Origin: Eledone cirrhosa
Lineage: Eukaryota
Direction of reading: 5' to 3'
Length of the DNA: 64,000 nt
Assembly: GCA_964016885.1 (NCBI GenBank)
Contig: OZ024741.1
Coordinates: 141,546,001 to 141,610,000, forward strand
Below the pieces are notes generated by a model. That model had not been told where the DNA came from. It ran no database searches and saw only the letters and a list, made by a program, of their open reading frames with translations. Made by a program: the position numbers and the translations under genes. This document shows positions 7,463 through 49,233 of this stretch, one piece after another (position 1 is the first letter of the stretch; each line of letters opens with the position of its first letter).

Positions 7463-7634
7463 TGTAAACAAACGGCCTGATTTAAAGCTGTGACGTGTTG
7501 GTGACCGATCGTCACCTGTTTGATCGATTTAAAGGTGTGCTGTGCCGGTGACCGATCGTCACCTGTTTGTTCAACAAACAGGTGACGATCGGTCACCGGC
7601 ACAGCACACCTTTAAATCGAGCCGTTTGTTTACA
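7463..7634. repeat. GC-rich palindrome / fold-back element
   Basis: Perfect 48-bp arms 7524-7571 and 7573-7620; outer arms TGTAAACAAACGGC (7463-7476)/GCCGTTTGTTTACA (7621-7634); a diverged extra unit at 7477-7523. Confidence 0.9.
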
Positions 7635-7857: not shown

Positions 7858-8926
<1,069 letters not shown>

Positions 8927-11716: not shown

Positions 11717-11820
11717 TTAAAGTTGCACCAACACCAATGTTTTTATCGTGACACCATCACGTTAAAAAAAGAAAACATTAAATTTTGGGACAATTTATGT
11801 GACATTTATCTATTATTATT

Positions 11821-12020
11821 AGGGTGGGGGATTGGCAGTATCAGTAGAAGGTCGGACGCCATGCTCTCTAGCATAGTTACGTCCCTTTACGATCTGAGTT
11901 CAAATCCCGCCGAGGTTAACTTTGCCTTTCATCCATACATGGTCGATAAAATAAAGTACCAGTAATGTACTGGTTAATTACTGGCCTTGTGCCAAAAGTA
12001 GAAACAATTATTATTATTAT
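11821..12020 (+). mobile_element. SINE S1, near full length, ending in (ATT)n
   Basis: A-box-like TTGGCAGTATCAGTAG, B-box GAGTTCAAATCCC, central domain, and tail GGCCTTGTGCCAAAAGTAGAAACA(ATT)n. Confidence 0.85.
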
Positions 12021-12028
12021 AATTTCAT

Positions 12029-12469
12029 GACACGTTTGAAAGGGCTGAAGACGAGCACTTACCTCTTCGGTGATGCCCTGATTGACTTTTTCAAATTTCA
12101 TTTGAAAAGGAAAATCAGAGTAGAGAGGGAAGTGCTCTCTTCCCAGCATTTTGTTGAAAGATGGGTGAGAGAAGTAAGAATGGCCCGAGTGAATGGGCCT
12201 ACTCTGAGTATGTATCTGTAAATTAAAGGTGGAAAACTGGGAGAGGGCACTTGACTTGGTGGTCAGGGTCACTGTAGCCTTTTACTGGGCTTTCTCCACA
12301 AATGTCCCTCCGAAGTCTCCCCACTATTGGGGAATTTTTCATTGTTATTTTTTGTTACATCCTCTGTTTTTGTTTTTTACACGTAGAAATTCCCATTTGT
12401 ACCGTCCTGTATTGTCCTGCACTGTCCTTAATATCTACTTTATGTAAACCCTTGTGGTTAATAAAGAAA

Positions 12470-12471
<2 letters not shown>
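12029..12471 (+). mobile_element. Tx1-clade family C, 5'-truncated 3' fragment
   Basis: Near-identical to 33554-33996 (TRLKGLKTSTYLFGDALIDFFKFHLKRK); ends AATAAAGAAATC followed by (ATT)n. Confidence 0.92.
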
Positions 12472-12505
<34 letters not shown>

Positions 12506-12506
<1 letters not shown>

Positions 12507-15186
12507 AGTTGCATTTATCTTGCTTTATGTTCATACGAGTTATCACCAAATCACAACCAGTGACCTCAAGAGACAACAAGGTCCGCCATGTTCAAGAAAG
12601 CACATACATACTCACACATGCATCTTTAGTGTTTAGACTTGTGATGTACTTATATTGACAGAATCTTCCTTAGTATATGGGCAGTTCCCATTAGTACTAT
12701 CTTTTGTATTTCTCCTATACGCGGGTTTCTTGGGATTTGCGATAACTAATCATTAGACCCCTTAGGTATCATTCCCAGAGCGCCTACAACCACTGGTATT
12801 GTTTTAGTTCTCAATTTCCACATTTTTCCAATTTTTATCTCCAGGTCCTTATACTTGCTCAATTCTTCAAATGTTTTTATAGATACATTCTTGTCTATTG
12901 GAACAGACATATCAATTAGCAGGCATACCCTCTTTTTAAAGTCCTTCAATATTACATCAGGTCTATTTGCATCTATTTCTCGGTCTGTTTGGATGCTAAA
13001 GTTCCACAAGATTGAGGTGTGATCTTTTTCAAGTATGGGATGTGGTTGATGCTCCCACCAATTCTTTTGATGGGGCAGGTCAAAATGCTTACACATTATC
13101 CAATGTATGTATTGTTTAGCTCTGTCATGCCTGTTTAGGTATTCGGTTGGAGCTATAGGACTGCACATTGAAATTATATGGCCAATGGTCTCCGGTTGTT
13201 TTTTGCATACACGGCATAATGGGCTGCATCCATTTTTTATTATGTTGGCTTGGTAATTTTTTGTTGGCAGACACTGATCTTGTGCTGATATAATCAGTCC
13301 TTCAGTCTCCGATTTCAGTCCAAGGGATGCCAACCACTGATGGGTTAAAGTTTTGTCAACATCAGGATTGTTAGCTCGCTCTGGGTATTTTCCATACAGA
13401 GGCTTTTCTTGCCATTTCTTAACCAGTTTCTGTGGCAGTTCTTTCTTTGCAGTTAATTTTACCTGTTTTGCTTTTTCTGTGTTTTCCATTTCAGCCGCAA
13501 ATGGGACTTATGAAATTTGTAGTCCATTACTGTATCTTTGTGCATCTTTTGTAATAGAATATGATCTTTTGATGCTTTCGTGTTTCAAAACGAGTTTGAT
13601 CATCCAATCATGTGATTCCCTTAGATATGTAGATAATCCAATTGTTGCAGTTTTCAACGCAATGTCTAACTGGATTAACCCACGTCCTCCTTCTTTCCTA
13701 GGGAGATATATTCTATCTGTATCTGCCTTAGGGTGATGCATTCTGTGCATGGTTAAGAATTTTCGAATTTTTGTATCGAGCCTACGGATCTCTGTGCTTG
13801 ACCAGTTGATGACATTGTAACTGTAGGTTACTACTGATATGGCAAGTGTGTTTATGGCATCGATCCTATTCCTTGCATTCAATTACGTTCTTAAGATTGC
13901 TCTTACTCTGCGGTAACATTCCTTCCTCATCCTTTCCCTCATTGTCGAGTGCTTGATTTCGTCTTCTTCACAAACACCTAGATATTTGTAAGTTTTTTCT
14001 TGATCAAGTTCTCTTATCACGTTCCCCCGAGCAAGATTAATGTCTGAACTCTTCAGCAGCTTTCCTCTGGTGAACGTTGCTTTGGCGCATTTATCTAGTC
14101 CAAACTCCATTTTAATGTCATCACTGAACTGCTCCACAGTGGATAATAGCCCTTGCAATTGTTCATCATTTTTTGGAAATAGTTTCAGGTCATCCATGTA
14201 GAACAAGTGATTAATGGTTTTGTCATAGACTTTATATCCATGTTTTGTTTCATTGAGCATTTTACTTAATGGTATAAGTGCGATGCAGAATAAAAGCGGT
14301 GATAAAGAGTCACCCTGAAAAATTCCACAATTAATATTAACTTCTCCAGCTTCCAGTGATTTTGTTTCACTATTCAAAAGGAGTGTCGTTTTCCATGTCT
14401 TCATACTGAATGACAAAAACCTCCTGACAACGGGGGATATATTGAAAATCTCTAAACATTTTTCAATCCAACTATGTGGCAAACTATCGAATGCTTTTTT
14501 ATAATCTATCCAAGCAATCGATAGATTTTTGTGTCTATTATGACAATCTTCCAGTATCATTTTGTTAACCAAAAGTTGATCCTTACAGCCATATGAGCCT
14601 CGTTTACACCGTTTCTGCTCAATGGGAAATATGTCATTTGTTATCAGGTGGTCATATGTGTATTCAGTTAGGACTGATGTTAAAATTTTATACATTGTGG
14701 TCAAGCAAGTTATCGGTCTGTAATATTTTTGGGATTGTTTGTCTCATCATTCTTCGGTAGCAGGAATGTAATACCGTAAACTAGCCATGATGGTATCTTT
14801 TCTGGCTCCTTAACTATTTCATTGTAAAGTTGGGCTAACAGCTCATGAGACTCTGTGAAGGCATTTATCCAAAAGTTTTGTATTTTGTCTTTTCCTGTGG
14901 ATTTCCATTTGCTGGTTTTTCTTAGAGCCAAGCGCAACTGTTCAACTGTTATATTTTTCCATATTTGTTCCTCAAGGTGAGCTGTACCTTTCATTTATCT
15001 GTCTATCCATGGGACATGTATGTTATGAACTTTTTCTTCGGCCCAGATCTTTTCCCAGAATTCTTGCACTTCTTCCTTGGGTGGTATTGATTTAGCAGTT
15101 ATTGTTGACTTACCAATTTTTCTGTAGAAGTTTCTTTGGTTGTTTTTGAACATATTATTGTCGGTTTTTTTTAACATATTATTGTC
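12506..15186 (-). mobile_element. R4/Dong family B, 5'-truncated and defective (copy B1)
   Basis: RT motifs WIDYKKAFD, GIFQGDSLSPLLF and YMDD; CCHC CRVC...HIISMC; RHD; RPDVILKD restriction-like endonuclease. Several stops/frameshifts; (TAA)n at both ends. Confidence 0.93.
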
Positions 15187-15204
15187 TTATTATTATTATT
15201 ATTA

Positions 15205-17940
15205 CAGTTGCAGTTATCTTGCTTTATGTTCATACGAGTTATCACCAAGTCAAAACCAGTGACCTCAAGAGACAACAAGGTCCGCCATGTTCAAGAAAGA
15301 ACATACATATTCACACATGCATCTTTAGTGTTTAGACTTGTGATGTATTTATATTGACAGAATCTTCCTTAGTATATGGGCAGTTCCCATTAGTACTATC
15401 TTTTGTATTTCTCCTATACGCGGGTTTCCTGGGATTTGCGATAACTAATCATTAGACCCCTTAGGTATCATTCCCAGAGCGCCTACAACCACTGGTATTG
15501 TTTTAGTTCTCAATTTCCACATTTTTCCAATTTCTATCTCCAGGTCCTTATACTTGCTCAATTTTTCAAATGTTTTTATAGATACATTCTTGTCTATTGG
15601 AACAGACATATCAATTAGCAGACATACCCTCTTTTGAAAGTCTTTCAATATTATATCAGGTCTGATTGCATCTATTTTTCGGTCTGTTTGGATGGTAAAG
15701 TTCCACAAGATTGAGATGTGATTTTTTCAAGTATGGGAGGTGGTTGATGCTCCCACCAATTCTTTTGATGGGGCAGGTCAAAATGCTTACACATTATCCA
15801 ATGTATGTATTGTGCAGCTCTGTCATGCCTGTTTAGGTATTCGGTTGGAGCTATAGGACTGCACATTGAAATTATATGGTCAATGGTCTCTGGTTGTTTT
15901 TTGCATACACGGCATAATGGGCTGCACTCATTGTTTATTATGTTGGCTTGGTAATTTTTTGTTGGCAGACACTGATCTTGTGCCGATATAATCAGTCCTT
16001 CAGTCTCCGATTTCAGTCCAGAGGATGCCAACCACTGATGGGTTAAAGTTTTGTCAACATCAGGATTGTTAGCTCGCTCTGGGTATTTTCCATACAGAGG
16101 CTTTTCTTGCCATTTCTTAGCCAGTTTCTGTAGCAGTTCTTTCTTTGCAGTTACTTTTACCTGCTTTGCTTTTTCTGTGTTTTCCATTTCAGCAGTAAAT
16201 GGGACTTCTGAAATTTGTAGTCCATTACTGTATCTTTGTGCATCTTTTGTAATGGAATATGATCTTTTGGTGCTTTCGCGTTTCAAAACGAGTTTGATCA
16301 TCCAATCATGTGATTCCCTTAGATATGTGGATAATCCAATTGTTGCAGTTTTCAACGCAATGTCTAACTGGATTAACCCACGTCCTCCTTCTTTCCTAGG
16401 GAGATATATTCTATCTATGTCTGCCTTAGGGTGATGCATTCTGTGCATGGTTAAGAATTTTCGGATTTTTGTATCGAGCCTACGGATCTCTGTGCTTGAC
16501 CAGTTGATGACATTGTAACTGTAGGTTACTACTGGTCTGGCAAGCATGTTTATGGCATCGATCCTATTCCTTGCATTCAATTCCGTTCTTAAGATTGCTC
16601 TGACTCTGCGGTAACATTCCTTCCTTATCCTTTCCCTCATTGTCGAGTGCTTGATTCCGTCTCCTTCACAAACACCTAGATATTTGTAAGTTTTTTCTTG
16701 ATCAAGCTCTCTTATCACGTTCCCCCGATCAAGATTAATGTCTGAACTCTTCAGCTGCTTTCCTCTGGTGAACGTTGCTTTGGCGCATTTATCCAGTCCA
16801 AACTCCATTTTAATGTCATCACTGAACTGCTTCACAGTGGATAATAGCCCTTGCAATTGTTCATCATTTTTTGGAAATAGTTTCAGGTCATCCATGTAGA
16901 ACAGGTGATTAATGGTTTTGTCATAGACTCTATATCCATGTTTTGTTTCATTGAGCATTTTACTTAATGGTATAAGTGCGATGCAGAATAAAAGCGGTGA
17001 TAAAGAGTCACCCTGAAAAATTCCACAATTAATATTAACTTCTCCAGCTTCCAGTGATTTTGTTTGACTATTCAAAAGGAGTCTCGTTCTGCATGTCTTC
17101 ATACTGAATGATAAAAACCTCCTGACAACGGGGGATATTTTGAAAATCTCTAAACATTTTTCAATCCAACTGTGTGGCAAACTATCGAATGCTTTTTTAT
17201 AATCTATCCAAGCAATCGATAGATTTTTGTGTCTATTATGACAATCTTCCAGTATCATTTTGTTAACCAGAAGCTGATCCTTACAGCCATATGAGCCTCG
17301 TTTACACCCTTTCTGCTCAATGGGAAATAGGTCATTTGTTATCAGGTGGTCATATGTGTATTCAGTTAGGACTGATGTTAAAATTTTATACATTGTGGTC
17401 AAGCAGGTTATCGGTCTGTAATTTTTGGGATTGTTTGTCTCATCATTCTTCGGTAGCAGGAATGTAATGCCGTTAACTAGCCATGATCGTATCTTTTCTG
17501 GCTCCTTAACTATTTCATTGTAAAGTTGGGCTAACAGCTCATGAGACTCTGTGAAGGCATTTATCCAAAAGTTTTGTATTTTGTCTTTTCCTGTGGATTT
17601 CCATTTGCTGGTTTTTCTTAGAGCCAAGCGCAACTGTTCAACTGTTATATTTTCCCATGTTTGTTCTTCAAGGTGAGCTGTATCTTTCATTTGTCTGTCT
17701 ATCCATGGGGCATGTATGTTATGAACTTTTTCTTCGGCCCAGATCTTTTCCCAGAATTCTTGCACTTCCTCCTTGGCTGGTATTGATTTAGCAGTTATTG
17801 TTGACTTACCAATTTTTCTGTAGAAGTTTCTTTGGTTGTTTTTGAACATATTATTGTCCTTATAGAATCTAGATCGTTTTTCAAAGCGCCTTATACGAGC
17901 AGCTTTGGCCGACACTTTTTTGCTTGATTTTATTTTTTTT
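15205..17940 (-). mobile_element. R4/Dong family B, 5'-truncated (copy B2)
   Basis: Close paralog of B1; long open RT frame 15672-17987, frameshift near 15720, premature TAG at 15445; (TAA)n at both ends. Confidence 0.93.
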
Positions 17941-17970
17941 ATTATTATTATTATTATTGTTATTGTTATT

Positions 17971-20900
17971 CCTTGAATCTCAGTCATTGATGTTGGTTAA
18001 CTGGAAAGTCCGTTGGATTGAATATCAAGCCACTACCTGCAGCCTCAGATATTCAGGACGTATCGGAGGGTTCTTGCCGTTCCAAGCAAGCATGCCTTTT
18101 GAAGCGTTCCAAAAAGCGTGAAGGGGCCGATTTTCTTTAACCATCCCTGGAAACCTTTGGAGATAGTCCCCAGTGCGCCTATGACAATCGGGATCACTTT
18201 GACTTCATGGCAGTTCCAAATCCTTTTCACCTCCCACTTTAGGTCCTGGTATCGGTTAATTTTCTCCCTCTCCTTCTCTTGCACTCTCGTGTCGAACGGG
18301 CAGGCCACATCCACAATCAGGCACGATCTTTTTTCTTTGTCCACAACCACCAGGTCAGGTCTATTGTGTTCCAGTTTTTTGTCCGTCTGTATCCTAAAAT
18401 CCCACAGCACCTTCACCTGACTGTTCTCCATCACCGCCTCTGGCCTATGCTCATACCATTTCTCAGAATGTGGTAGATTGTTTACTTTGCACAGGTGCCA
18501 GTGGATCACCCTGCCCATCACATCGTGTCTCCAGCCCTTATAGTGGGTCTGGGCTAGGTGTTTACACTCGGACACAATGTGAGCCACAGTCTCCTCTCTC
18601 TCTCCACAGATCCTGCACAGTGGGCTAGCCTCCTCCTTGTAGATATGGTGCTTCAACCACTTCGTTTTGAGGGCCTGCTCCTGCGCAGCCATTAGCATTC
18701 CTTCTGTAGCCTTTTTGAGGTCTCCTCTTCTCAACCAGTTCCATGTCTGTGGATCTCTAAATTCAGTTTTCTCAAAGAAGGTACTATGAAGGGATTTTCC
18801 CTTAAGGCTGCTCTTCCTCCTTGATGTTATTTCCTCCTTGGGTATCCCCTGGCCTACTGTCCCCTCCTTCAGTACAGCTCTGAGCATTGGCTCCTTACTA
18901 TAGGTCACGTATTTGTATAGGTTGTTTTTCTCCATCTGAACACAGTCCTCTATGCTGATAAGACCTCTTCCACCCTCAGATCTCCTTAGGTAGAGTCTAT
19001 CGACATCACTCCTCTTGTGGAACATGTTGTAGATAGTCAATAGCTTCCTAGTCTTCCTATCCATTTCTTTTTGTTCAGCAACATTCCATCTCAGAATTCC
19101 CGCACTGTACCTAATAATAGACACAGCTCGGGAATTTACTGCGCTTATGGCATTTCTGCTGTTCAGATGTGACTTCAATACGCTCCTTACTCTCCGAATG
19201 TATTCAGTTCTTAACAATTCCTTCATTTTTTTGTTCTTTATGCCATCAGCCTCCAGAACGCCCAAATACTTGTATCCTTCCTCAGAGTCAATTTCCTTTA
19301 TCATCTCACCTGTTGGTATCTGGATCCCGTTACTTCTGCTCAACCTACCCCTCCTCATCACAATGACTCCACATTTACCAATACCAAACTGCATACATAT
19401 ATCACTGCTGAAAATACGGACAGTGTCAACAAGCACATCCAACTCCTTCTCACTTTTCCCGAAGAGCTTAAGATCGTCCATGAAGAGGAGGTGATTGATG
19501 GTAAGCTCTCCCCTTCCCAACTTGTATCCTGCTCTCACTTTTCGCAGCATAATGGTCAAGGGCATCAGGGCAAGGACAAACAACAGAGGGGACAGGCTAT
19601 CTCCCTGGAAGATACCTCTCTTGATCTTCACGCTTCCCAAGGATACTCCAGTTGATGTCAACTCTGTCTCCCAGGACCCCATACTCCTGCCCAGCAACTG
19701 TCTGATGTTATCTGCCACCCTGAAGATCTCCAGGCTTTTGGTGATCCAGGAATGAGGCACCATGTCAAATGCCTTTCTGTAGTCTATCCATCCCATGGCA
19801 AGATCAGTGTGTCTCCTCCTGCAATTCCCCATTACCATCTTATCAATAAGCAACTGGTCCTTTGTACCACGTGACTTCTTTCGGCATCCTTTCTGTTCGT
19901 CCGGCAACAAGTTGTTTGTGTGGAGGTGATGGTAGATTTCCTCAGACACAATGCTCGTCAACAGTTTCCACATTACGGGCAGACATGTGATAGGTCTATA
20001 GTTGGTAACATCATTACCCTTGATTCGGTCTTTCATTATCAGAACTGTGGTACCTTTTGTCAACCACTCTGGCACCTCACCCGACACCAAGCAGTCATTG
20101 AACATGGCCGTCAGCTTCGGGTGGAGGGATGTTAAATGTTTAATCCAATACCCCTGCACACCATCTGGGCCTGGTGATTTCCAGTTGGTTAGTTTTTTGG
20201 CTTGCCCCTTAAGAGTTTCAACTGTGATACTCAAATCAGTCTGTTGCTGTGCCTGCTCACCGATCTCCCTCTGTACTGTCTCAATCCACCCTGCCTGGGC
20301 ATTGTGTCTAACATCCTGCTCCCATATTCCTCTCCAGAATGTTTTAGCTTGTTCCGCCCCAGGGATCAAGTCGGTGCCTCTTTCTTTCCCCTCAAGCTGT
20401 CCAAACAGCATCTTCTGGTTGTTGTCGAACATGCGGTTCTGTTTATACTGACTGACTCTGTTCTCGTATCGCCTGATTTTGGCACTCTTTGCTACAATGC
20501 GTTGCTTCAATTCCTCTATGATAATATTTAGCTTTTTACTCCTAGTTTTGTATTTTATTTCCAGTCTATTTTTAGTGCCTATGTTTTTTAGTGTCCCATT
20601 CAGTAGTGACTCATGCTTTCCTATGTCATTTCTCATTTCCCCGATTTGCCCACTCAGTCGCTTCTTCCACCACGGCTCTGCTCTTTCTTGTCTGTTGTTT
20701 CCTCTCGCTTTTATACCAAGTAGTTTCCTCACCGTATTTGCTGTTGCTTTGAGGATATTGTTGCACTGGTGAAGACTCCTCGCCTCAAGGTATGGGATGA
20801 CTTTGTTTACCTTAGCTGTTGTTTCTTTTAACTTTTTCCTGTCTACAAATCTTAGGTTCATAGGTCTCCCACTATCATTGTTCAACTCATCTACCACTAA

Positions 20901-21452
20901 ATTTAGGATGTCAACCGAATCTTGTCCTAGCCCGTCAGCATTCATCTCCTCAGTGGCCGTATCTCTGTTCCAGGTATTATTTATCTCAGTATTCAGATCA
21001 TTGTCTGCTTCGGGTGGTTCCTCCGCTCTCAGGACCTCCTCACCTTCATTTCCCGCCGGCTCGCTTGTCTGGCATACCACACCCGCCATCTCCAAGCCAT
21101 TCTCTCTGCTCAGTTCCTCCAGTTCCAGCTCGCTTATCCACCCATTAGTTCTTATTACCCGAGCCTGCCCGGCCAATTTTTGTTCATCTAATTTAAATAA
21201 ACCAATCTCGTTCCAGATGTTATGCATCCGTCTCCTGTAGCCCCTCTCCTTGGGGTTACTTTTCAGGTAGCATTGCATAACAGTTCTATTCAATTCTTTC
21301 GTCCAGTTGGTTCTGGCCCCTTTCCTTCTTCTTCTTCCTCCAACATCAGCAGTATTTCGTTGACAGTCAGGTTCCTGCTGCTGAGCCAGGGGGCACCTGT
21401 TGGGTGAGAGTCTGTCACATGACGTTCTAGTCTCCATTTCACCGTTATTCGA
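17971..21452 (-). mobile_element. R4/Dong family A, near full length with intact ORF (copy A1)
   Basis: Flanked by (TAA)n on both sides; lacks only about 55 nt of the 5' end seen in copies A2 and A3; 3' UTR about 75 nt. Confidence 0.95.
18045..21437 (-). CDS. Reverse transcriptase + CCHC zinc knuckle + restriction-like (PD-D/ExK) endonuclease of an R4/Dong retrotransposon, 1130 aa from METRTS
   Basis: YRPITCL, QKGC, WIDYRKAFD, GIFQGDSLSPLLF, FMDD, YKYLG, CRICGEREETVAHIVSEC, RHD, RPDLVVVD...IVDVACP and KINRYQDL; no stops. The first 80 aa of the 1210-aa ORF call come from upstream flanking DNA. Confidence 0.93.
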   Translation of the reverse strand: METRTSCDRLSPNRCPLAQQQEPDCQRNTADVGGRRRRKGARTNWTKELNRTVMQCYLKSNPKERGYRRRMHNIWNEIGLFKLDEQKLAGQARVIRTNGWISELELEELSRENGLEMAGVVCQTSEPAGNEGEEVLRAEEPPEADNDLNTEINNTWNRDTATEEMNADGLGQDSVDILNLVVDELNNDSGRPMNLRFVDRKKLKETTAKVNKVIPYLEARSLHQCNNILKATANTVRKLLGIKARGNNRQERAEPWWKKRLSGQIGEMRNDIGKHESLLNGTLKNIGTKNRLEIKYKTRSKKLNIIIEELKQRIVAKSAKIRRYENRVSQYKQNRMFDNNQKMLFGQLEGKERGTDLIPGAEQAKTFWRGIWEQDVRHNAQAGWIETVQREIGEQAQQQTDLSITVETLKGQAKKLTNWKSPGPDGVQGYWIKHLTSLHPKLTAMFNDCLVSGEVPEWLTKGTTVLIMKDRIKGNDVTNYRPITCLPVMWKLLTSIVSEEIYHHLHTNNLLPDEQKGCRKKSRGTKDQLLIDKMVMGNCRRRHTDLAMGWIDYRKAFDMVPHSWITKSLEIFRVADNIRQLLGRSMGSWETELTSTGVSLGSVKIKRGIFQGDSLSPLLFVLALMPLTIMLRKVRAGYKLGRGELTINHLLFMDDLKLFGKSEKELDVLVDTVRIFSSDICMQFGIGKCGVIVMRRGRLSRSNGIQIPTGEMIKEIDSEEGYKYLGVLEADGIKNKKMKELLRTEYIRRVRSVLKSHLNSRNAISAVNSRAVSIIRYSAGILRWNVAEQKEMDRKTRKLLTIYNMFHKRSDVDRLYLRRSEGGRGLISIEDCVQMEKNNLYKYVTYSKEPMLRAVLKEGTVGQGIPKEEITSRRKSSLKGKSLHSTFFEKTEFRDPQTWNWLRRGDLKKATEGMLMAAQEQALKTKWLKHHIYKEEASPLCRICGEREETVAHIVSECKHLAQTHYKGWRHDVMGRVIHWHLCKVNNLPHSEKWYEHRPEAVMENSQVKVLWDFRIQTDKKLEHNRPDLVVVDKEKRSCLIVDVACPFDTRVQEKEREKINRYQDLKWEVKRIWNCHEVKVIPIVIGALGTISKGFQGWLKKIGPFTLFGTLQKACLLGTARTLRYVLNI

Positions 21453-21509
<57 letters not shown>

Positions 21510-21510
21510 T

Positions 21511-23697
21511 GAGTCTCGGTCATTGATGTTATTTAACTGGAAAGTTTGTTGAAATGAATATCTAGCCACTACCTGCAGCCTCAGATATTCAGGACGTATC
21601 GGAGGGTTCTTGCTGTTCCCAGCAAGCATGCCTTTTGAAGTGTTCCAAAAAGGTCTCCTCTTTTTAACCAGATCCATGTCTTAAAGAAAGTACTATGAAG
21701 GGGTTTTTCATGAAGATTGCTCTTCCTCCTTGGACATCCCCTGGACTATTGTCTTCTCCTTCAGACAAACAACAGAGGGGACAGACTATCTCCCTGGAAG
21801 AAACCTCTCTTGATCTTCACGCCTCCCAAGGATTCTCCAGCTGATGTTAACTCTGTTTTCCAGGACTTCATACTTTTTCCCAACAACTGTCTGATGTTAT
21901 CTGCCACCTTGAAGATCTCTAGGCTTTTGGTGATCCAAGAATGAGGCACCATGTCAAATGCCGTTTTGTAGTCTATCCATCCCATGGCAAGACCAGTGTG
22001 TCTCCTCTTGCAATTCCGCATTACCATCTTATCAATAAGTAACTGGTCCTTTGTACCACGGGACTTCTTTCGGCATCCTTTCTGTTCGTCCGGTAACAAG
22101 TTGTTTGTGTGGAGGTGATGGTAGATTTCCTCAGACATAATGCTTGTCAACAGTTTCCACATTACGGACAGACATATGATAGGTCTATAGTTGGTAACAT
22201 CATTACCCTTGATTCGGTCTTTCATTACCAGAACTGTGGTACCTTTTATCAACCACTCTGGTATCTCACCTGACTTCAAGTAGTCATTGAACATGGTTGT
22301 CAGTTTCGGGTGGAGGGATGTTATATTTTTAATCCAATACCCCTGCACACCATCTGGGCCTGGTGATTTCCAGTTGGTTAGTTTTTTGGCCTGCCCCTTA
22401 AGAATTTCAACTGTGATACTCAAATCAGTTTGTTGGTGTGCCTGTTCACTAATCTCCTTTTGTACTGTCTCAATCCACACTGCCTGGTCATTATGTTTAA
22501 CATCCTGCTCCCATATTCCTCTCCAGAATGTCTTAGTTTGTTCCGCCTCAGGGATCAAGTCGTTGCCTCTTTCTTTCCCTTCAAGCTGTCCAAACAGCAT
22601 CTTCTGGTTGTTGTCAAACATGCGGTTCTGTCTATACTGACTGACTCTGCTCTCGTATCGCCTAATTTTTGCACTCTTTGCTACAATGCGTTGCTTCAGT
22701 TCCTCTATGATAATATTTAGCTTTTTCCTCCTAGTTTTGTACTTTATTTCCAGTCTATTTTTAGTGTCTATGTTTTTTAGTGTCCCATTCAGTCGGGACT
22801 CAAGCTTTCCAATGTCATTTCTCATTTCCCTGATTTGACCATTCAGTCGTTTCTTCCACCAAGGCTCTGATCTTTCTTGTTTGTTGTTTCCTCTCGCTTT
22901 TATACCAAGTAATTTCCTCACCACATTTGCTGTTGCTTTGAGGATATTGTTGCACTGGTGAAGGCTCCTCGCCTCAAGGTATGGGATGACTTTGTTTACC
23001 TTAGCTGTTGTTTCTTTTAACTTTTTCCTGTCTACAAATCTTAGGTTCATAGGTTTCTCACTATCATTGTTCAATTCATCTACCACTAAGTTTAGGATAT
23101 CAACCAAATCTTGTCCTAGCCCACCAGCATTCATGTCCTCAATGGCCGTATCTTTGTTCCAGGTATTATTTATTTCAGCATTCAGATCATTGTCTGCTTC
23201 GGATGGTTCCTCCGTTCTCTCAACCTCTTCGCCTTCATTTCCCACTGGCTCGTTTTCCTGGCATACTCCACTCTCCATTTCCAAGCTAATCTCTCTGCTC
23301 AGTTCCTCCAGTTCTAGCTCGCTTATCCACCCATTAGTTCTTATTACCCGAGCCTGCCCGGCCAATTTTTGTTCATCTAACTTAAATAGACCAATCTCGT
23401 TCCAGATGTTATGCATCCGTTTCCTCTAGCCTTTCTCCTTGGGGTTACTCTTCAGGTAACATTGCATAACAGTTCTATTCAATTCTTTCGTCCAGTTGGT
23501 TGTGGTCCCTTTCCTTCTTCTTTTTCCTCCGACACCAGCAGTATTTGGTTGACAGCCAGTTCCTTGCTGCTGAGCCAGGGAGCACCTGCTGGGTGAGAGT
23601 CTGTCACATGACATTCTAGTCTCCACTTCACCGTTATTCGAACTGTTTAGGTTCGACATTTAAACACTCTTATCGAGGATTGGTGAATATATGGTTA
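21511..23697 (-). mobile_element. R4/Dong family A with intact ends and two large internal deletions (copy A2)
   Basis: 5' end carries the ATG at 23659 (MSNLNSSNNGEVETR); junctions near 21651 and 21764 skip about 600 and 700 bp relative to A1; 3' end abuts (TAA)n. Confidence 0.92.
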
Positions 23698-24037
23698 CAT
23701 AACCACCGGTGATTTTATCACTCCCGGTGATTTTTGTGTGGCACTATCACGCTGTAGACGAACATAAATAAACAAACAAACAAATAGGTAAAAAGAAAAA
23801 AAAAGAATAAGCATAAGTTTCATTGTAATGTAATGTTTGAATGTCTGACTTAGTTTTTCCCTTCCCTTCTCTGTCTGTCTGTTTGTTTTTCTTTTCATTT
23901 TCTTTACGTTTTTCGTTGTTGCTGTGCTGTTTTGATTTTGATTTTTGTTTTTTTGTTTTTTTTGACCGGGTCATCAAATCAGTCTATTTATATATTTTGA
24001 TGCCTTCCTCTTTTAGTGGGGACACTACGATGCATGT

Positions 24038-24185
24038 CTTAGCAGGAGGTAGTGGGAGAGAATAGCGGCGGTAGCGATAATGAGACAGTGGTGGTGGTGG
24101 TGGTGGTGCTGTGCTAGTAGTACTTAGCAGGAGGTAGTGGGAGAGAACAGCGGCGGTAGCGATAATGAGGCAGTGGTGGTGGTGA
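24038..24185. repeat. Tandem duplication, period about 86 bp
   Basis: CTTAGCAGGAGGTAGTGGGAGAGAA(T/C)AGCGGCGGTAGCGATAATGAG occurs twice. Confidence 0.85.
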
Positions 24186-24607
24186 TGTGATAGTAGTACT
24201 GTAGTGATGGTGTTGAAATTGAAGTAGAAATAGAAGTTGAGGTAACTTGACTAGAGTTTTTAGCGTGGTAGTGGTGGTGGTGTTGGTGGTGAAATTATCT
24301 TTCTGTCTGTCCACTTAGCCATTTAGCTATTTAGCTATTTAGCCATTTTGCCATTTTCCTCTTTTTCGACTATAACATTTCTGATCCAAAATTAAATATT
24401 AAATATTGGGGCCGTATGGGTTATGGCTTGCTGAACGTGAAAACTGTAATCTTATTGTTCATTTGTAATAAGAATTATTCTATCACAGTTGTTTTAAAGA
24501 AGTAAAAATCAAAATCTTACGGGAGCGATTCCATAACGATATATATCCACCATGTGCGTTTTCTTCCCTATATAATTATTATTAATATTATTATTGTTAT
24601 TGTTATT

Positions 24608-24965
24608 CCTTGAATCTCAGTCATTGATGTTGGTTAACTGGAAAGTCCGTTGGATTGAATATCAAGCCACTACCTGCAGCCTCAGATATTCAGGACGTAT
24701 CGGAGGGTTCTTGCCGTTCCAAGCAAGCATGCCTTTTGAAGCGTTCCAAAAAGCGTGAAGGGGCCGATTTTCTTTAACCATCCCTGGAAACCTTTGGAGA
24801 TAGTCCCCAGTGCGCCTATGACAATCGGGATCACTTTGACTTCATGGCAGTTCCAAATCCTTTTCACCTCCCACTTTAGGTCCTGGTATCGGTTAATTTT
24901 CTCCCTCTCCTTCTCTTGCACTCTCGTGTCGAACGGGCAGGCCACATCCACAATCAGGCACGATC

Positions 24966-24968
<3 letters not shown>
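24608..24968 (-). mobile_element. R4/Dong family A, 360-bp 3' fragment (copy A4)
   Basis: Identical by eye to 17971-18330, including the AATAACAATAAC tail variant; (TTA)n on both sides. Confidence 0.95.
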
Positions 24969-25018
<50 letters not shown>

Positions 25019-25020
<2 letters not shown>

Positions 25021-27951
25021 AGGCTTACAAGGACCGAGTCAACAATTTAGTTAAGCAAAAGTTGACAGGGGGATCATTAACAACAGATGGTGGGTGGCTC
25101 TCAAAAGAGAGATTAGAGTAACTTCGATAGAGTTCATCAAAGAACTAGTGTTAGAGAAAAATAGAAAGGAGGGGGAGATGGTAGATAAGTTAGACGAGGC
25201 TATTTGTAGTGGCATCGCAAATGACGTGCTAGCGGCGAGAATGGCATTAGACCATTTCTTCAATGCCAAACACGAAGGTTGCATTGTCAGAGCTAAGGCG
25301 CATGCGCTGAGAAACGAGGGAACTAAAGCTGTTCGATGGGCCCGCGTGGTGGAGGCGCATCGTGGTAATAAAACCACAATTCGGTCTTTGGCGGACCGAG
25401 ACGGACACGAGATAAGCGATTCCAAGCGGATGTGTGAGGCTTTTCGCCAGCACTTTGCTCGGTTGTTCAGAGAGAGTGGCGAGTCAGAGAGAGTAGCGGA
25501 TTTCAGTCCCTACCTTGACGGCTTGCCGCGCATCTCGACGGTCGACGCTGAGCGCTGTGAAAGGCCGATTATTTCAGCCGAAATTCAGGACGCCCTTGTC
25601 GGCTGCATGAGGCGCAAGTCACCCGGTTTGGATGGCCTGTCCTACGAGCTTTACGTAAATATGCCAGACTTGTTCTCCGAACTCCTCGAAGCACTCTACT
25701 GCAACTGGCAGCAGAATGGGAGTATTCCCAGTTCTGTGAGCAGGGGAGTGGTGACGCTGATAAGGAAAGACGAGAACAAGAGGGATACCTTAGACAACTT
25801 CAGGCCCATAACACTGCTCAACACAGAGTTTAAGATTTTTGCCAAGGTGTTAGCAAAGAGATTGGCGCTTGTCGTCGAGGATTTGGTTGGAGAGGCGCAA
25901 ACTTGCGCAATCCCAGCCAGGTCCATACACGACAATTTCCACCTTATGCGATACATCATAGAGAGGGTAGGGTGTAAACCTGGCTTCGGTGGGGCACTGA
26001 TCAATTTAGATCAATCGAAAGCATTCGATAGGGTCGACCATCGATATCTGGAGTTTGTCCTCAAAGCAGCTGGCTTTGGCCCTGTCTTTAGAAGCTGGAT
26101 CGTTGCAATGCACAGCGACACATGCTCGGTGGTCAAAGTTAATGGCCACCTCTCGGAACCATTTCGGCTCTCCCGATCGGTCCGTTAAGGGTGCCCTCTC
26201 TCTTCCCTTCTGTACGTATTGACTCTCGAGCCTTTACTGCGGAAGCTGGAGCTGTTGCAGGGCATCCCGCTCGAACCGGGACGTGGAAAGGCGTTGTCGG
26301 CTTATGTGGACGACATCACGGTGATGGTGTCGAACACCTCAGAAATCGAGGTGGTAGGCACCTAATTGAAGGAATATGAAAGGTTGACAGGAGCCAAACT
26401 TAACCCGGAAAAGTCGGTGGGCTTGCAGCTCGGCACCTGGAGAGGTAAGCCCATGCCGTCCAACAGCGTCGTGGGGCGCTGGACGGACGGACCGGTAAAG
26501 TTGCTCGGGGTTTGGTTCGGACCAGACCTCCAGGTGGAAAAGAATTGGGACGAGGTAACGAGCAGAGTAGCCAGTCTCACCCAAAAATGGGCTGGGAGGA
26601 AGCTATCACTGAAAGGTCGCGCGGAGGTGGCGAATGCGTACATCGCGTCCGTCATCTACTACCGCCTGACCGTCGTGCCTTGCCCCCGTCCGCGCCTCGT
26701 CAAGCTGGAACGGCTCCTCTTCAAATTCTTGTGGAGGGGACAAGTTCCGTTGGTGAGGCGGTCCACCTGCTGCCAGCACCCTCTATGCAGAGGGCTGGGC
26801 TGCCGTGGCTAATGATGCGCAGACATGCGTTGAGGCTGCGACATCTCCAGATATTCTGCCTCAACGGTGAACAGGTGTGGTCGCCGTTTATCAGACGGGC
26901 CTTTCCGCAGCTCATTTCTTTGACTGAGCTGCAGTCCTGGGTCAAGAAGAGACCGAGACTGGGTGACTGGCACCTGGAATGTTTCCAGGCACTCACTGCC
27001 CTCTACCAAGCGGGCAATGCGATCAGTGGAACTTCCACTCTCGAGTTCTATAGAGGATTAGTGGTGGGCAAGTGCGATGACGCACTCGGAGAAGCTTTGG
27101 GCCTCGACGAAGTCGAACTGACCAGTCTCTACCGGAGGACTTTTGAGCCGGGGACGATGGACAATTTCCAGAAATCCCTTGCTTGGCATTGCTACCGGGG
27201 AGCACTGCCGGTTCGGGATAAACTCTACAGGCACCGAAGTGATGTCAGACGGACCTGTCCAAGATGCGCAGAGAACGACGAAACCGTTCTGCACGCACTT
27301 GTCCAATGTCCGAGCATTACTGACTTGTGGAGTTATGTCGAACAGCTACTGTCGCGTGTAGAACGAATCCGGCTATCGGCCGAGTCCATAGTGAAGATCG
27401 ATCCACCGCCTTCCTTAGGTCAGGAAGAGCAGGAAATTTTCTTCTGTCTGGTGGCAGTTGCGAAAGAGATTATATGGTGGACCAGGTTGAAAGGACTAAA
27501 AACAGACACTTTTCTCTTCGGCCAATCCCTCATCAACTTCTTCAAGTTTCACCTGGAAAGGAAGGTGAGGGTGGAGAGAGAAGTGCTGCCCCCCAGTACA
27601 TTTGCTAAAAGGTGGGTGAATGTGGCGAGTATGGCTCGTGTGAATGGGCCTACTCTGACCATGCGCCTATAGGCTGGCTAACTTGAGGAGAGGGGTGCGC
27701 TCCCTGGGTGCCCTAGAAGCGCAGGGTGGTTCAGGATTGGTGGGGTACCCGAATCACCCCAGGGTCGTCCATCCCCTATCGGGGAATTTATTTTGTTATA
27801 TTTATGCATAGTTTATTTTATATTTTTATATTTTCATTGTTAAATTAGTCTTGCCATTGTGCACTTTTACTCGACCTTATTGTAAACCCCCACTGTCCCT
27901 ATCTTTGTATTGTCCCCTACATGTCGGCTCTTGTGGCTAATAAATGAAATC
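25019..27951 (+). mobile_element. Tx1-clade family D, 5'-truncated and defective ORF2
   Basis: KSPGLDG, FRPITLLN, DQSKAFD, YVDD and CPRC...HALVQC; stop at 26186 plus frameshifts; ends AATAAATGAAATC followed by (ATT)6. Confidence 0.92.
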
Positions 27952-28185
27952 ATTATTATTATTATTATTGAATGCTATGGTTGACGGAGGCTCGGCTCTG
28001 TAAGGTATTGTAAATTTTGAACGCTATAACAATTGTAAATTGTTTAAAACTTAGACCAACTTGTAGACAAAAACACCCTCCTCCTCGTGAGAGGGGTCTT
28101 TCTGCCCGTTATTTGGCCCTTCGGGGTTAAATAACTGCTTATTGGGGTTTTGTACCCAATATTTATTTTAAACAAAAAAAACAAC

Positions 28186-30291
28186 ATGGCTACGAAAAAG
28201 AATTTGCATAGGTCACTCCCACTCATTCCGTCTTCTTCTTCCCCAATCGTCACTACAGCAGAGAGAAGATTGTCTCTCTCCCTCCCTTCTTTAAATGTGT
28301 CTCTCTCCCTCCCTTCTCTTTCGCAAGCGACGACAGAAAAGAAAAGTCTTGTGCAAAGCGTGCAAGATTTCTCCACGACGACAACAACGAAACAGGTGTG
28401 CGGGAAATACGAAAACCCATTTCATTCGTCTGACGTCAGGAATAATAGCAGTAGCAGCCGTAATAACAACAGCAACAGTGACAATGAAAACAACAGTAGC
28501 AGCCGCAACAGCATCACCAGCAGCATAAACAACAACAGCATTAGCAGCAGCAACACCAACAACAACCACAGCAACAGCGGCGGAGGCAGTAGTCGTAGTA
28601 CCTGCAGCAACAACAAAAGTAACAGCAGCTCTGACGACAACAACAACAACAGCAGCAAAGAAAAACCAATATCGTTTGCAGGTATCGCGAAGAACCTGGA
28701 AACAATCCTCATAACAAATGAGGAATTAGAGGAAGCGAAGAAGATGGTGACAAATATAGGACACCGATCAATCTGCAAGGCAGCGGAAAAATTTTTCGAA
28801 ACCCAACAGCACTGTACGGTCACGTACCGTACAGTAAGTACAAAATCCCGTAGGGTTGAAAGAGCCACAGAGGCTCAAATACAAAAAGCCTTGGGGTCTG
28901 TGTGGCAGCGGAAAACGCACATCACCCGAGGCAAAAAATATGCCACCGTAGACGTACTTTTTGCCACACCCCAGGAGGCAAAGGCTCAATCCGTAGTGAC
29001 CCTAAGGAGCGAGGAAATGGTGTTGGTGCCCTCCTACTGCGGGCAAAAAATTGTGAGGGTCAAACTGACCCACGTCCCCCCCCCCCCCCCGGGATGGCCC
29101 CTTCTTGGCTTGCCGCGTCTGTCCTCGTCGGAATCGAGGACAAAACAACTGTATTGCAAGTACAGAAAAAAGTAAGAGAAGATTGGGTCGGCACCTCCAT
29201 TGAGATGTTATTCCAAACCAGCCAGGAGTGCATCGAAGCTATCCCGGATGTGATAGACTTCGATAACGGCACTCAACTGCCCATAAGTGTTGAGGGCAAA
29301 CGCCCGAAATGCTTTCGCTGTGGATCGAAGACTCACCTCAGGGCCTTCTGCAACGAGAAGACCCTGAGAAAGGAGAAAACCCCCCCTCCTTCCGAAACCG
29401 GCTCCACGGCTACCAGCAACAGAACAAGCGGCAACCATGAACGATAGGTCCGTGGCACCCATACCCACTCCACGGAAATCAAAAACAGCAGCAGCAGTGG
29501 AAATATTAACAACAACAACAGCAATACCAAATGCAGCTGCAACAGAGACTCCAGTGCTAACATCACCAACGACAACAAGTGAAAGAGTGGAGCTGGTACC
29601 CCTCCCCGACCTCACAGAATCAGACATGGAATGTGAGGTGGGAGAGGGATGGCATAAGGTCGTAAGAAGGCACAAACGCAGAAGCAGCGCATCGTCGCCT
29701 TTGAAAAGGGAGGAAAGAAATGAGAAAAGGGTAAAGTCTACTGCAAAGAGACTCACAGCAGCAACACCACCAACACCATCACCACCCACACTAGCACCAC
29801 CATCACCACCGGCAACAACCCCACCGCCAACAACACCTTCAACACCACCACCACAAGCACCAACATCGCAAACACAACAACAAAACACACACACCCAGCA
29901 ACAACGACAAGAAAATAGCAGAACCACACCCCACCCCCAGAAAAACAAATGCACGGCAATAAATACACACAACAAGAAACTAATGACTTACATAATTGAA
30001 CACACAGACATTTCACAACACGACTACATAATACCAGCACCGATCAAAACGCCAACTAACATAAGACTGCTAAAAATAGCACAGAAACAATACACAAACA
30101 TTAAAACGAAATTCCCCAACGCAGTTGGTGATTTCAGGGACCTAGGAGGAACTATCAATCGAAGAGTATATTCGGACATACTCATAGAAGAGCCGACGAC
30201 CAGCCGAAGGGACGATTCAACGGTCCCTTCACCAGACGATCAAGTGAAAAGGGATGTAAAAACCATCCCTCCTCTACGAAAAGTACGGTAA
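28186..30291 (+). CDS. ORF1, gag-like zinc-knuckle nucleic-acid-binding protein (two apparent frameshifts)
   Basis: Starts MATKK; N/S-rich and T/P-rich tracts; CFRCGSKTHLRAFC (CX2CX4HX4C). Frame changes can be placed at poly-C runs ~29076-29090 and ~29380-29386. Confidence 0.75.
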
Positions 30292-30326
30292 GTTGTCTTT
30301 CCCATCTTTTCCACTCTATTTTAAAC

Positions 30327-33300
30327 ATGACCTCACTCAGAATAGGCAGCATAAATGCGCGTGGCTTGGGGTCGTCATGGAAGCAGGGTCACCTGCTCAA
30401 CGACCTCAGGTCACTAAACATAGATGTAGTGGCCATCAGCGAGACCAGAATCTCCGAAGCACGGGCCTTCGCACCGATCTTCGGCGGCTACGATGTGTAC
30501 GCATCTCCCAGCCGTCCTGGATCGGGGGGAGGAGTTGCTGTGCTTTTTCGGAGAGGTTTGGATCCCGCCATACGGGCCATTTTCCTGGACCCAGAGGGTA
30601 AGCTGGTGGTGCTGGACGTGACCAGCGGAGACGGGCAAGCTTTCAGGCTAGTGGCCGTCTATGCCCCGACAGGTGCAGGGCAGCCTGATTTCTTCCGGCA
30701 TCTGGAGACCTTTCTTGGAACGTCCCGCTCTTTAGTGTTAGTGGGCGACTGGAACGGGATCTTAGATGCACGCTGGGACTGTGTGGGATTAGCGGATAGG
30801 GGTGGAGGGTGCAAGAGCCTCACCAACCTGCTCAGGCGTTTTGAACTGTCTGACAGGTACCGATTGGATTTCCCGAATGTGCCAATGTGGACTTGGACAA
30901 ATCGCATAGGGTCATCCAGATCATATCTAGATAGAGTATTTTGTAGGGAAATAGATAGGTCTAGCATAGGCTATCCACAATTCAAGATAGTCAGCTACAC
31001 GGACCACAAATTCGTGATCTGTGTGCTTGACTTAGATAGGCTTCATAGACGAGGACCCGGCTACTGGAAGCTAAACGCGTCCTTACCAGCGCGCAAGGCC
31101 TACAGAGACTGGATTAGCGAACTAGTTAAGCGGGCGTTGACGGGGGCCATCGTCAACAACAAGTGGTGGTTTGCTCTGAAAAGAGCGATTAGAATAGAAT
31201 CCATTAGGTTTAGTAAGGCTTTAGCAATAGAGAAAAATAGAGCAGAGGGAGAACTAGTTAGAAAATTAGACGAGGCGCTTAGCAAAGGCATTGCGACCGA
31301 CGTGCTTGCGGGGAAATTGGCACTTGACCAATTCTTCAATGCAAAGCACGAAGGCTGCGTTGTCAGAGCAAGGGTGCGTGCTCTCAGACACGAGGGGACG
31401 AAAGCCGTTCAACGGGCCCGAGTGGCGGAGGCGCGTTGTGGCAACAAAGCCACGATCCGGTCTTTGGTGGACCACGACGGGCGCATGCTACGCGTTCCCG
31501 GGCAAATGTGTGAAGCTTTTCAGCGACACTTCGCTCAGCTGTTCGGGGGCAGCGGTGGGCCGGGTCGAGGGATGGACTTTAGTGTCTACCTCGACGGACT
31601 GCCGCGGCTCTCGGCCACTGAGGCGAAGTGTTGCAAAAAGCCGATAACAGCCGCTGAAGTAATGGAGGCAATGACTGGCTGCACAAGGGGTAAATCGCCT
31701 GGTTTGGATGGTCTGCCCTATGAACTTTACGTAAAGATGCTAGACTTGTTCGGAGGCCTCTTGGCGGACGTCTACTGCAACTGGCAACAGAACGGGAGAA
31801 TTCCCAGTTCTGTGAGCCGAGGAGCGGTGGCACTGCTGAGAAAGGATCCGAACAAGGGGGATAACATAGATAATTTCCGGCCCATAACTCTGCTAAACAC
31901 AGAGTTCAAGATTTTGGCCAAGGTGCTAGCAAAGAGGTTGGCGCTTGTCGTTGGTGGTCTGGTGGGAGAGGTGCAGACATGCGCCATTCCCGACAGATCC
32001 ATCCACGACAACCTCCACCTCATGCGATACATCGTAGAGAGGGTAGCTAGGGAACCTGGCAAGGGTGGGTCCTTGATCAATTTAGATCAGTCGAAAGCTT
32101 TCGATAGGGTCGACCATCGTTACCTAGTGGCAGTCCTGAGAGCGGCTGGCTTTGGGCCCGTCTTCAGAGGCTGGATCGCTGTCATGCACAGCGACATCTG
32201 CTCTGTGGTGAGAGTGAACGGTCTCCTGTCGGAACCGTTCATCATCATGCGCTCGGTCCGCCAAGTATGTCCCCTCTCGTCCCTCTTGTACATATTGACT
32301 CTCGAGCCATTACTGCACAAACTGGAGACGTTGAGGGGCGTCCCGCGCGAACTAGGATGCGGAAGATCCGTGTCAGCATATGCGGACGATGTCACCGTAG
32401 TGGTGTCGAACGCCAAACACATCGAGGCGATCGGCACTACACTAAGAGAATACGAAGCGGTGACAGGAGCAATGATCAACCAGGAAAAGTCAGTGGGCCT
32501 GCAGCTCGGCACCTGGAGAGACAGGTCCATGCCGTCCAACAGCGTCGTCGGACGCTGGACGGACGGACCAGTTAAATTGCTAGGGGTCTGGTTCGGTCCA
32601 GACCTCCAGACGGACAAAAACTGGGACGATGTGACGAGCAGGGTGGCTTCTCTCACCCAGAAATGGGCGGAGAGGAAGCTATCCCTGAAAGGTCGAGCGG
32701 AGGTGGCTAACGCGTACATCGAGTCTGTCATCTGCTACCGCCTGACCGTCGTACCTTGTCCTAAGCCCCGCCTGACTGCGCTGGAGCGTTTGCTCTTTCG
32801 CTTTTTGTGGAAGGGACGCGCTCCGATGGTCAGGCGGTCCATCTGTTGTCAACACCCGCTACGCGGAGGGCTGGGCATGCCGTGGCTGATGATGCGCAGG
32901 CACGCGCTCAGGCTACGACATCTCCACCTCTTCCTCGACGGTGATCAGGTGTGGTCGCCGTTTGCTAGACACGTATTTCCCCAGCTCGTTTCCTTGACGG
33001 AGCTGCAGTCCTGGGTCAAGCGAAGACCGAGAGGGAGCGCCTGATGACTGGAATGTCTTCAGGCGCTCACAGCCCTCGACCAATCGGGCAATGTGATCGG
33101 TGGAAACTCCACCTCAGCGTTCTATAGAGGATTAGTGGAGGGGAAGAGCGACGACGTACTTGGGGAAACTCTAGGCGTTGACGAAAATCAACTAGCCAAT
33201 CTCTTCGGAAGAACTTTCGGGCCAGGGCCTATGGACAACTTCCAGAAATCTCTGGCCTGGCAGTGCTACCGAGGAGCCTTGCCAGTTCGGGATAAACTCT

Positions 33301-33746
33301 ACAGGCATGGAGGTGCCGTCATCCGGGCATGTCCGAGATGCGCGCAGGGCGACGAAACCGTCCTGCACACACTCGTCCAGTGTCCGAAAATTGCTGACTT
33401 GTGGGTTTATGTCGAACACCTGCTGTCGCGTTTAGGACGGATCCGGCTATCATCTGAGTCCATCGTGAGGATTGCCCCGCCCTCCTCCTTTAGCCGGGAA
33501 GGGCAGGCAGTTTTTATCTGTCTGGTGGCCATGGCGAAAGAGATAGTATGGTGGACACGTTTGAAAGGGCTGAAGACGAGCACTTACCTCTTCGGTGATG
33601 CTCTGATTGACTTTTTCAAATTTCATTTGAAAAGGAAAATCAGAGTAGAGAGGGAAGTGCTCTCTTCCCAGCATTTTGTTGAAAGATGGGTGAGAGAAGC
33701 AAGAATGGCCCGAGTGAATGGGCCTACTCTGAGTATATATCTGTAA
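30327..33746 (+). pseudogene. ORF2: AP endonuclease + reverse transcriptase + CCHC, interrupted only by in-frame TGA-TGA at 33042-33047
   Basis: APE motifs SINARGL, AISET, VYAP, GDWN, LDR and TDH; RT motifs FRPITLLN, DQSKAFD and YADD; CPRC-x7-HTLVQC. ORF 33093-33746 is in the same frame. Confidence 0.9.
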
Positions 33747-33994
33747 ATTAAAGGTGGAAAACTGGGAGAGGGCACTTGCCTTGGTGGCCAGGGTCATTGT
33801 GGCCTTTTACTGGGCTTTCTCCACAAATGTCCCTCCGAAGTCTCCCTCCTATTGGGGAATTTTTCATTGTTATTTTTTGTTACATCCTCTGTTTTTGTTT
33901 TTTACACGCAGAAATGCCCATTTGTACCGTCCTGTATTGTCCTGCACTGTCCTTAATGTCTACTTTATGTAAGCCCTTGTGGTTAATAAAGAAA

Positions 33995-34047
<53 letters not shown>

Positions 34048-47005: not shown

Positions 47006-47007
<2 letters not shown>
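45230..47007 (-). mobile_element. R4/Dong family A, 5'-truncated and decayed (copy A5)
   Basis: Collinear with 17971-19775; starts at the KAFD motif immediately after (TAA)n at 47008-47075. Confidence 0.92.
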
Positions 47008-47067
<60 letters not shown>

Positions 47068-47267
47068 TACTATTATCACTACCTGTACAAATATGCAACT
47101 TAACAATATGCTGCATATCCGCAGTTGACAATGCATATAATGCTGAAACCGGTATTGTAAATAAATTGATGTTTTGATATCTCACTGAAAAAGATCTCTT
47201 CGACATTTTCTACTGAAAGAATCTTTTTCCTTTCTAACATTTGTTTTCATATATATATATATATATA

Positions 47268-49168: not shown

Positions 49169-49233
49169 CTTATATATATATGCATATGGATTTATTATAT
49201 ATATCTATATATATATATATATATACATATATA

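Follow-up and report, generated by a model that had tools for sequence, protein, structure and literature searches.

A shared (ATT/TAA)n target with opposite insertion polarity for Tx and Dong retrotransposons in Eledone cirrhosa

Described target-sharing systems and the Eledone chain

The DNA considered here is a 64,000-nucleotide stretch of Eledone cirrhosa contig OZ024741.1 (positions 141,546,001 to 141,610,000, forward strand; the window), in which two kinds of non-LTR retrotransposon, called Dong (families DongA and DongB) and Tx (TxC and TxD), abut one another across (ATT/TAA)n repeats. In its SINE and repeat content the window appears octopod-like. Dong elements of the R4 clade, described in Bombyx, Anopheles, Biomphalaria and an ostracod, have a single open reading frame (ORF) with a Myb-like N-terminus, reverse transcriptase (RT), CCHC motif and restriction-like endonuclease (RLE), and target (TAA)n, with TAA on the sense strand as in the primer for the B. 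mori 5' junction (PMC3774820, PMC7998251, PMC3812793). Their N-terminal domain is Myb/SANT-like and has no zinc fingers (PMC7998251). The Eledone elements have the same RT, CCHC and RLE architecture, a possible Myb-like N-terminus and the same sense-strand (TAA)n target; however, two families are present, and their landing pads are shared, in mixed arrays, with elements encoding an apurinic/apyrimidinic endonuclease (APE) and with a short interspersed element (SINE). Among APE elements, Kibi, Koshi and crocodilian Tx1 families target (TC)n, (TTC)n, (TTCC)n and (TTTC)n microsatellites (PMC4494074), whereas the main target here is (ATT)n, common to several 5' variants.

The use of one repeat by two families in opposite directions is known from TRAS1 and SART1 of Bombyx telomeres (PMC7265360). 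Both of these are APE elements confined to telomeric (TTAGG)n, in contrast to the unrelated nuclease folds and dispersed trinucleotide repeat seen here. TRAS1 and SART1 both belong to the R1 clade. In 28S ribosomal DNA, an APE and an RLE element, R1 and R2, share a multicopy target (PMC1635306). Their sites in the gene are separate and fixed, the two elements lie in the same orientation, and they are not known to form self-extending mixed arrays. A SINE that shares the target preference of the Tx1 family inferred to move it is exemplified by SINEU and Tx1-Mar (PMC4494074); the target there is a DNA transposon, whereas the Eledone SINE goes to a short ATTA motif and has a Tx-like 3' end. In octopus, the long interspersed elements (LINEs) reported to be most active include Dong-R4 and L1-Tx1, and the passages cited contain no target analysis (PMC13282606). 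No ATT-targeting Tx1 and no mixed Dong/Tx1 arrays appeared in the literature searched, although Repbase, Dfam and the supplements of PMC4494074 on Tx1 targets lay outside that search and might list one. The principles of Dong/TAA targeting, microsatellite targeting by Tx1 and antiparallel TRAS/SART insertion are thus known, but their combination has apparently not been described before.

Self-BLAST, Pfam and a junction listing of the 64-kb window resolved positions 11821-34047 into a single contiguous 22-kb chain of ten elements (Table 1), probably eleven if the older DongA-like copy at 10259-11812 is included. The element order, orientations and ATT junctions given in a preliminary description of the window were all recovered. 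That description had divided the elements between two arrays; the members stand but the separation does not, because the intervening 23760-24569 is DongA 5' untranslated region (UTR) and leaves no spacer. The same sequence recurs on other genomic DongA copies, where it directly follows (TAA)n. ATT units are present at all nine internal junctions and are interrupted at three (15163-15204, 17930-17970 and 24570-24607). The earlier statement that all Dong copies with a 3' end finish in TAA repeats needs correction for the solitary Dong at 45.2-47.0 kb, where the 3' tail is degenerate and the long run lies at the 5' junction.

Junction repeats and polarity across the genome

A survey of 300 genomic loci of the 3.0-Gb assembly, together with the window's own copies, was based on searches with element ends from which repeats had been excluded. 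The best 40 matches to each were taken and 30 loci kept, many of them extended. References were single natural copies, with DongA 3' ends taken from other loci. Each junction was counted once per coordinate, and a row was kept if its first match was at least 85% identical (80% for the SINE) and at least 90 bp long, with at least 40 bp of flank; rows were dropped for a DongB reference short of the true 5' end, an old DongA-like reference and RTE at the reference edge. A 5' junction was scored by a repeat run of at least 12 bp within -30 to +6. The background was taken from 36-bp windows of 33 arbitrary 10-kb stretches, which held such runs in 15 (ATT) and 22 (TAA) of 9141 cases, about 0.2%; the ATT junctions of the chain are thus well beyond chance expectation. 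Elements no more than 160 bp apart were treated as neighbours.

At their 5' junctions, Tx copies carried ATT in 97/100 full-length and 25/52 truncated cases and TAA in 0/152, while Dong copies carried TAA in 14/17 full-length and 97/120 truncated cases (111/137 in total) and ATT in none of the 137. For truncated copies the excess over background was large (Fisher p = 2e-49 for Tx with ATT and 4e-185 for Dong with TAA). The 3' junctions held ATT in 133/148 Tx and TAA in 112/123 Dong copies. Full-length SINEs had ATT at 18 of 63 5' junctions and TAA at none. The control, an RTE-like LINE family represented in the window, had a repeat run at 0/23 5' and 0/30 3' junctions.

Orientation was nearly invariant. 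All 104 Dong-Tx neighbours were opposite, with the repeat lying between them in 92; Tx-Tx neighbours had the same orientation in 43/43 cases, Dong-Dong in 54/56 and SINE-Tx in 27/29, and Dong-SINE neighbours were opposite in 22/22. Arbitrary stretches were also inspected. In the first 20, seven of the 15 runs of at least five units adjoined Tx or Dong; the 13 later ones yielded one Dong with TAA at both ends and one fragment without. The shared ATT/TAA target and the opposite fixed polarity, both proposed in the preliminary description, are therefore real and genome-wide, as the 5' junction counts and the antiparallel pairs indicate. The check it had called for, on the flanks of genomic copies, revealed neither mostly repeat-free 5' junctions nor random orientation. 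Full-length Dong 5' ends also often adjoin (GAA)n, matching their GAAGA start, which may be a secondary target or a seed for slippage (loci L113/L183, L097/L184 and L088).

The possibility was considered that the repeat is only a tail. Where truncated TxC copies lie at unique sites, they are flanked by a 12-bp duplication that begins with ATTAT (exact in L009, one mismatch in L005) and lack a long tail, and at six Tx 3' ends (CTT)n follows with one ATT or none in between; for Tx, the repeat is thus a target and not only a tail. TxC and TxD also occasionally use (TTC)n. Inheritance of CTT tails was rejected, the CTT-flanked copies not being nearest relatives in a tree that was poorly resolved and included one misaligned TxD slice. 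In DongA, AAC variants just past the conserved end recur across copies, and the short tail therefore appears to be encoded by the element.

Filled tracts, the SINE and the proposed mechanism

A second, young RTE-like element, with 1488 first-look candidates in the genome, provides a known empty site. An (ATT)5-21 tract lies immediately upstream of its ORF, and other such tracts are found downstream. In copies picked by RTE sequence alone, Tx or Dong lay in or at the edge of the upstream tract in 7/29; 20 copies viewed in full included four with Tx or Dong in a downstream tract and none with either inside the ORF. All of these insertions obey the Tx/Dong polarity rule, and at two sites there are arrays, of two and of three elements (L269/L374 and L199/L375). 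The ATT units add up to 7-31 in eight filled sites, whereas the 15 distinct tracts that are empty have 5-21, with a median of 8 (p = 0.004). The filled tracts show arrays nucleating and gaining repeat units, in keeping with the earlier proposal that insertion leaves or increases the repeats. The idea of RTE as a third ATT-targeting clade was rejected, since the tract sits inside its own 5' region, and L196 and L201, a candidate segmental duplication, are separate insertions into the RTE tract. In L329, a Tx fragment has inserted a little upstream of the RTE tract; it is accompanied by a duplication of roughly 24 bp and by an additional fragment from the 3' end of a different Tx.

The abundant SINE appears to share the Tx target. 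Target duplications of 8-20 bp, all starting ATTA, were found in 30/55 full copies, compared with 42/2970 in a mismatched-pair control, and among the 21 non-pure cases the duplication was preceded by a pyrimidine in 20. Its 3' end resembles three Tx ends (p 0.002-0.037) and not RTE or Dong ends (p 0.13-0.95), and by this similarity Tx is the likely partner LINE that moves it. The SINE partnership and the RTE-borne pads add to the preliminary description.

Target-primed reverse transcription (TPRT) is established for R2, L1 and TRAS/SART, the primer being the strand opposite the element's sense strand. Both clades likely insert into the shared (ATT/TAA)n by this route; because the primer opposes the sense strand, the TAA strand would serve as primer for Tx and the ATT strand for Dong. 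The data lead only to opposite priming strands; the earlier proposal that the two endonucleases nick opposite strands goes further, since annealing of the RNA tail could also set them. Tx and the SINE would recognize a short Y^ATTAT motif, offered many times over by (ATT)n; the target duplication would span some 8-20 bp, with a 3' tail that is short or absent. Dong would recognize (TAA)n more strictly and copy a short TAA-like tail of its own. Every insertion would split one pad into two, and element bodies would be spared, having almost no such runs inside; a run of four units occurred in one of 17 reference bodies. New pads probably originate from the RTE element with its (ATT)n tracts. Among the loci, where only pairs fitting within a locus are visible, neither Tx-in-Dong nor Dong-in-Tx interruptions turned up, so the earlier claim that arrays grow without mutual disruption held for Tx and Dong bodies in the loci seen; it did not hold throughout, as some Dong-Tx neighbours have lost the repeat and a SINE interrupts a LINE body in two loci. 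That an (ATT)n-targeting Tx1 lineage, its SINE, two Dong families, pad-multiplying insertions and an RTE element planting pads make up one retroelement community on one trinucleotide is offered tentatively, at slightly less than even confidence.

Several observations weigh against the shared-target account. A long ATT run is commoner in full-length than in truncated Tx (p = 2e-12), and a 5' (ATT)n leader on full-length Tx RNA could explain the excess; by eye, many of the truncated copies that miss the run look like later deletions or short ATTAT targets. The repeat is missing between 12 of the 104 pairs of Dong-Tx neighbours. For Dong no duplication could be observed, since pure repeats do not allow one to be measured. 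Of the filled RTE tracts, two show no gain or a deletion, the gain elsewhere is partly non-insertional in that microsatellite slippage also lengthens runs, and the sample is small, with 4/8 filled sites coming from Tx searches. Moreover, the surveyed loci are best matches to the window copies, so that young subfamilies dominate, and segmental duplicates partly remain among them.

Alternatively, the nucleases may nick either strand at TpA steps, with polarity set by pairing of the RNA 3' end (AUU in Tx, UAA in Dong). This would alter only the mechanistic step and leave the observation intact, and we regard it as a realistic possibility, though a somewhat improbable one. It agrees with the Tx and SINE 3' junctions, which nearly always start ATT or ATTA, with the TAA-like tail that Dong itself carries, and with the ability of SART1 to initiate by annealing to the telomeric repeat (PMC7265360). 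However, Tx keeps the same polarity in (CTT)n, the pyrimidine before SINE duplications lies outside any pairing region, and in TRAS/SART a swap of nucleases swaps the specificity (PMC7265360).

It is unlikely that Dong alone is targeted, with Tx inserting loosely and bringing (ATT)n at both RNA ends for Dong to colonize later. In its favour, full-length Tx 5' runs are rarely shorter than 15 bp and almost always finish in the phase ATT, half of the truncated Tx lack a long 5' run, and two full-length TxC (L161 and L175) combine (ATT)n at the 5' end with (CTT)n at the 3' end, a pattern that also tells against the shared target. As the sole cause, this explanation is nevertheless largely refuted by the truncated copies that retain the run far above background although they could not carry a leader, by Tx inside pre-existing RTE tracts, by the tailless unique-site copies and by the CTT-flanked copies, which are not each other's nearest relatives. 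Random insertion, with arrays reflecting survival in tolerant repeats, segmental duplication or assembly error, is hardly credible: the window is repeat-rich and an uninformative sample of sequencing reads showed neither an empty allele nor an array-spanning piece, but 104/104 antiparallel pairs, varied in their combinations and spread over many contigs, cannot result from selection or duplication, the RTE control lacks such flanks, mixed Tx/Dong neighbours occur in 3/20 arbitrary stretches, and the polarity counts refute it unless they are a sampling artefact.

Two unrelated nuclease folds acting with near-absolute opposite polarity on one symmetric-access target form a natural pair, which makes the long-standing question of nuclease recognition versus RNA-primer pairing testable on one substrate. 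The pattern also supplies a concrete mechanism behind transposon hotspots. If the community described above is real, its self-growing mixed arrays help explain such hotspots and the abundance of ATT microsatellites in this genome. ATT microsatellite markers and assemblies in such genomes should be treated with caution, as they sit on insertion hotspots.

Protein architecture and other features of the window

The DongA frame of 1211 aa has FMDD, CCHC, RPDL..VD and K..Y motifs, and no C2H2 finger was seen in the sequence. Its best PDB matches are R2 proteins, the RLE stretch included. The N-terminus is confidently predicted as a helical domain whose top matches, only at Z 5.0-5.9, are Myb/SANT/trihelix chains and the R2 N-terminal region; Foldseek gave no significant match for this domain. 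A hepatitis delta virus-like ribozyme at the Dong 5' end was sought, with no meaningful Rfam match and none found by a simple motif scan of Dong UTRs. DongA and DongB proteins are only 40% identical. TxC ORF2 matches PF03372 (APE), RVT_1 and zf-RVT, with human L1 ORF2p as best PDB match over residues 69-919 (E 3e-49), and ORF1 has a CX2CX4HX4C knuckle at about 29.31 kb. A CCHC knuckle in ORF1 is a feature of the Tx1 clade. The RLE and APE architectures expected from the preliminary description were thus found, and the elements are best described as R4/Dong-like and L1/Tx1-like, names taken from domain architecture and not from a tree with named references. Three Tx 5' ends (TxC, C2 and C3) join nearly the same ORF2, which implies ORF1 swapping. 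Among Tx copies, at least six distinct kinds of 5' end or ORF1 region begin right after (ATT)n (L155, L163, L134, L136, L199 and L239). The Dong copy in L098 has its 5' 1.2 kb inverted and also a deletion, an arrangement reminiscent of twin priming, here for an RLE element.

Table 1. Elements and repeat junctions in the window
Feature	Position	Strand	Remarks
Older DongA-like copy, 3' part lost	10259..11812	-	81-84% to DongA copies; short ATT run links to SINE
SINE, Tx-like 3' end	11821..12007	+	ATT units both sides
TxC 3' piece, 5'-truncated	12029..12471	+	97% to 33554-33996
(ATT)11 junction	12472..12505	+	Tx tail-to-tail with Dong
DongB, 5'-truncated	12506..15162	-	RVT_1; 96.8% to neighbouring DongB; 24-nt duplication at 5' junction
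DongB, 5'-truncated, frameshifted	15205..17929	-	RT, CCHC, RLE motifs
DongA, young, open frame	17971..21452	-	possible Myb-like N-terminal domain; RT, CCHC, RLE
(ATT)19 junction	21453..21509	+	
DongA, complete 5' end, internal deletions	21510..24569	-	5' UTR about 0.9 kb
DongA 3' piece	24608..24969	-	100% identity to 17971-18332
(ATT)17 junction	24970..25019	+	Dong head-to-head with Tx
TxD, 5'-truncated	25020..27951	+	RVT_1, zf-RVT; 77% to TxC
(ATT)6 junction	27952..27969	+	
TxC, full-length, broken copy	27970..33996	+	frameshifted ORF1, CCHC knuckle; APE-RT-zf in ORF2, which has a premature stop at 33044
(ATT)17, chain end	33997..34047	+	
DongA, solitary, 5'-truncated	45234..47076	-	long (TAA)n at 5' junction; degenerate 3' tail, about 2 units
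RTE-like LINE fragment	47291..49170	-	negative control family

In the young DongA copy, (AAT)n stands in place of the 5' UTR and the first few codons. The frame at 18045-21680 (- strand) continues without a stop through (AAT)19, read as poly-Asn, and reaches the 3' end of the copy lying upstream; a read-through RNA could therefore express DongA. The duplication at the DongB 5' junction (15138-15186) recalls a template jump.

The RTE-like element with ATT tracts (L301-L330 and L351-L370) has an ORF of up to 1056 aa. Its copies share long flanks that contain a SINE-like segment and several microsatellites, with a pair of inverted repeats on either side of the ORF; either long UTRs of a LINE or capture of an RTE by a different mobile unit could account for this structure. 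Copies of the control RTE family (L271-L300) end in (CTAAGA)n and very often lie in (TA)n or (CA)n runs, which suggests a microsatellite preference of its own. In most of 20 loci (L332-L350), the repeat ahead of a short element whose 5' region is RTE-like is (ATGT)n or (AT)n, not ATT; this element is possibly another microsatellite-targeting system. Elsewhere in the window, a 47-bp sequence is duplicated in tandem and then repeated in inverted orientation, which gives a GC-richer palindrome at 7479-7620, and a degraded RT-like remnant, whose longest frame has no Pfam match, lies at 8000-8880 between (AG)n and (AC)n runs.

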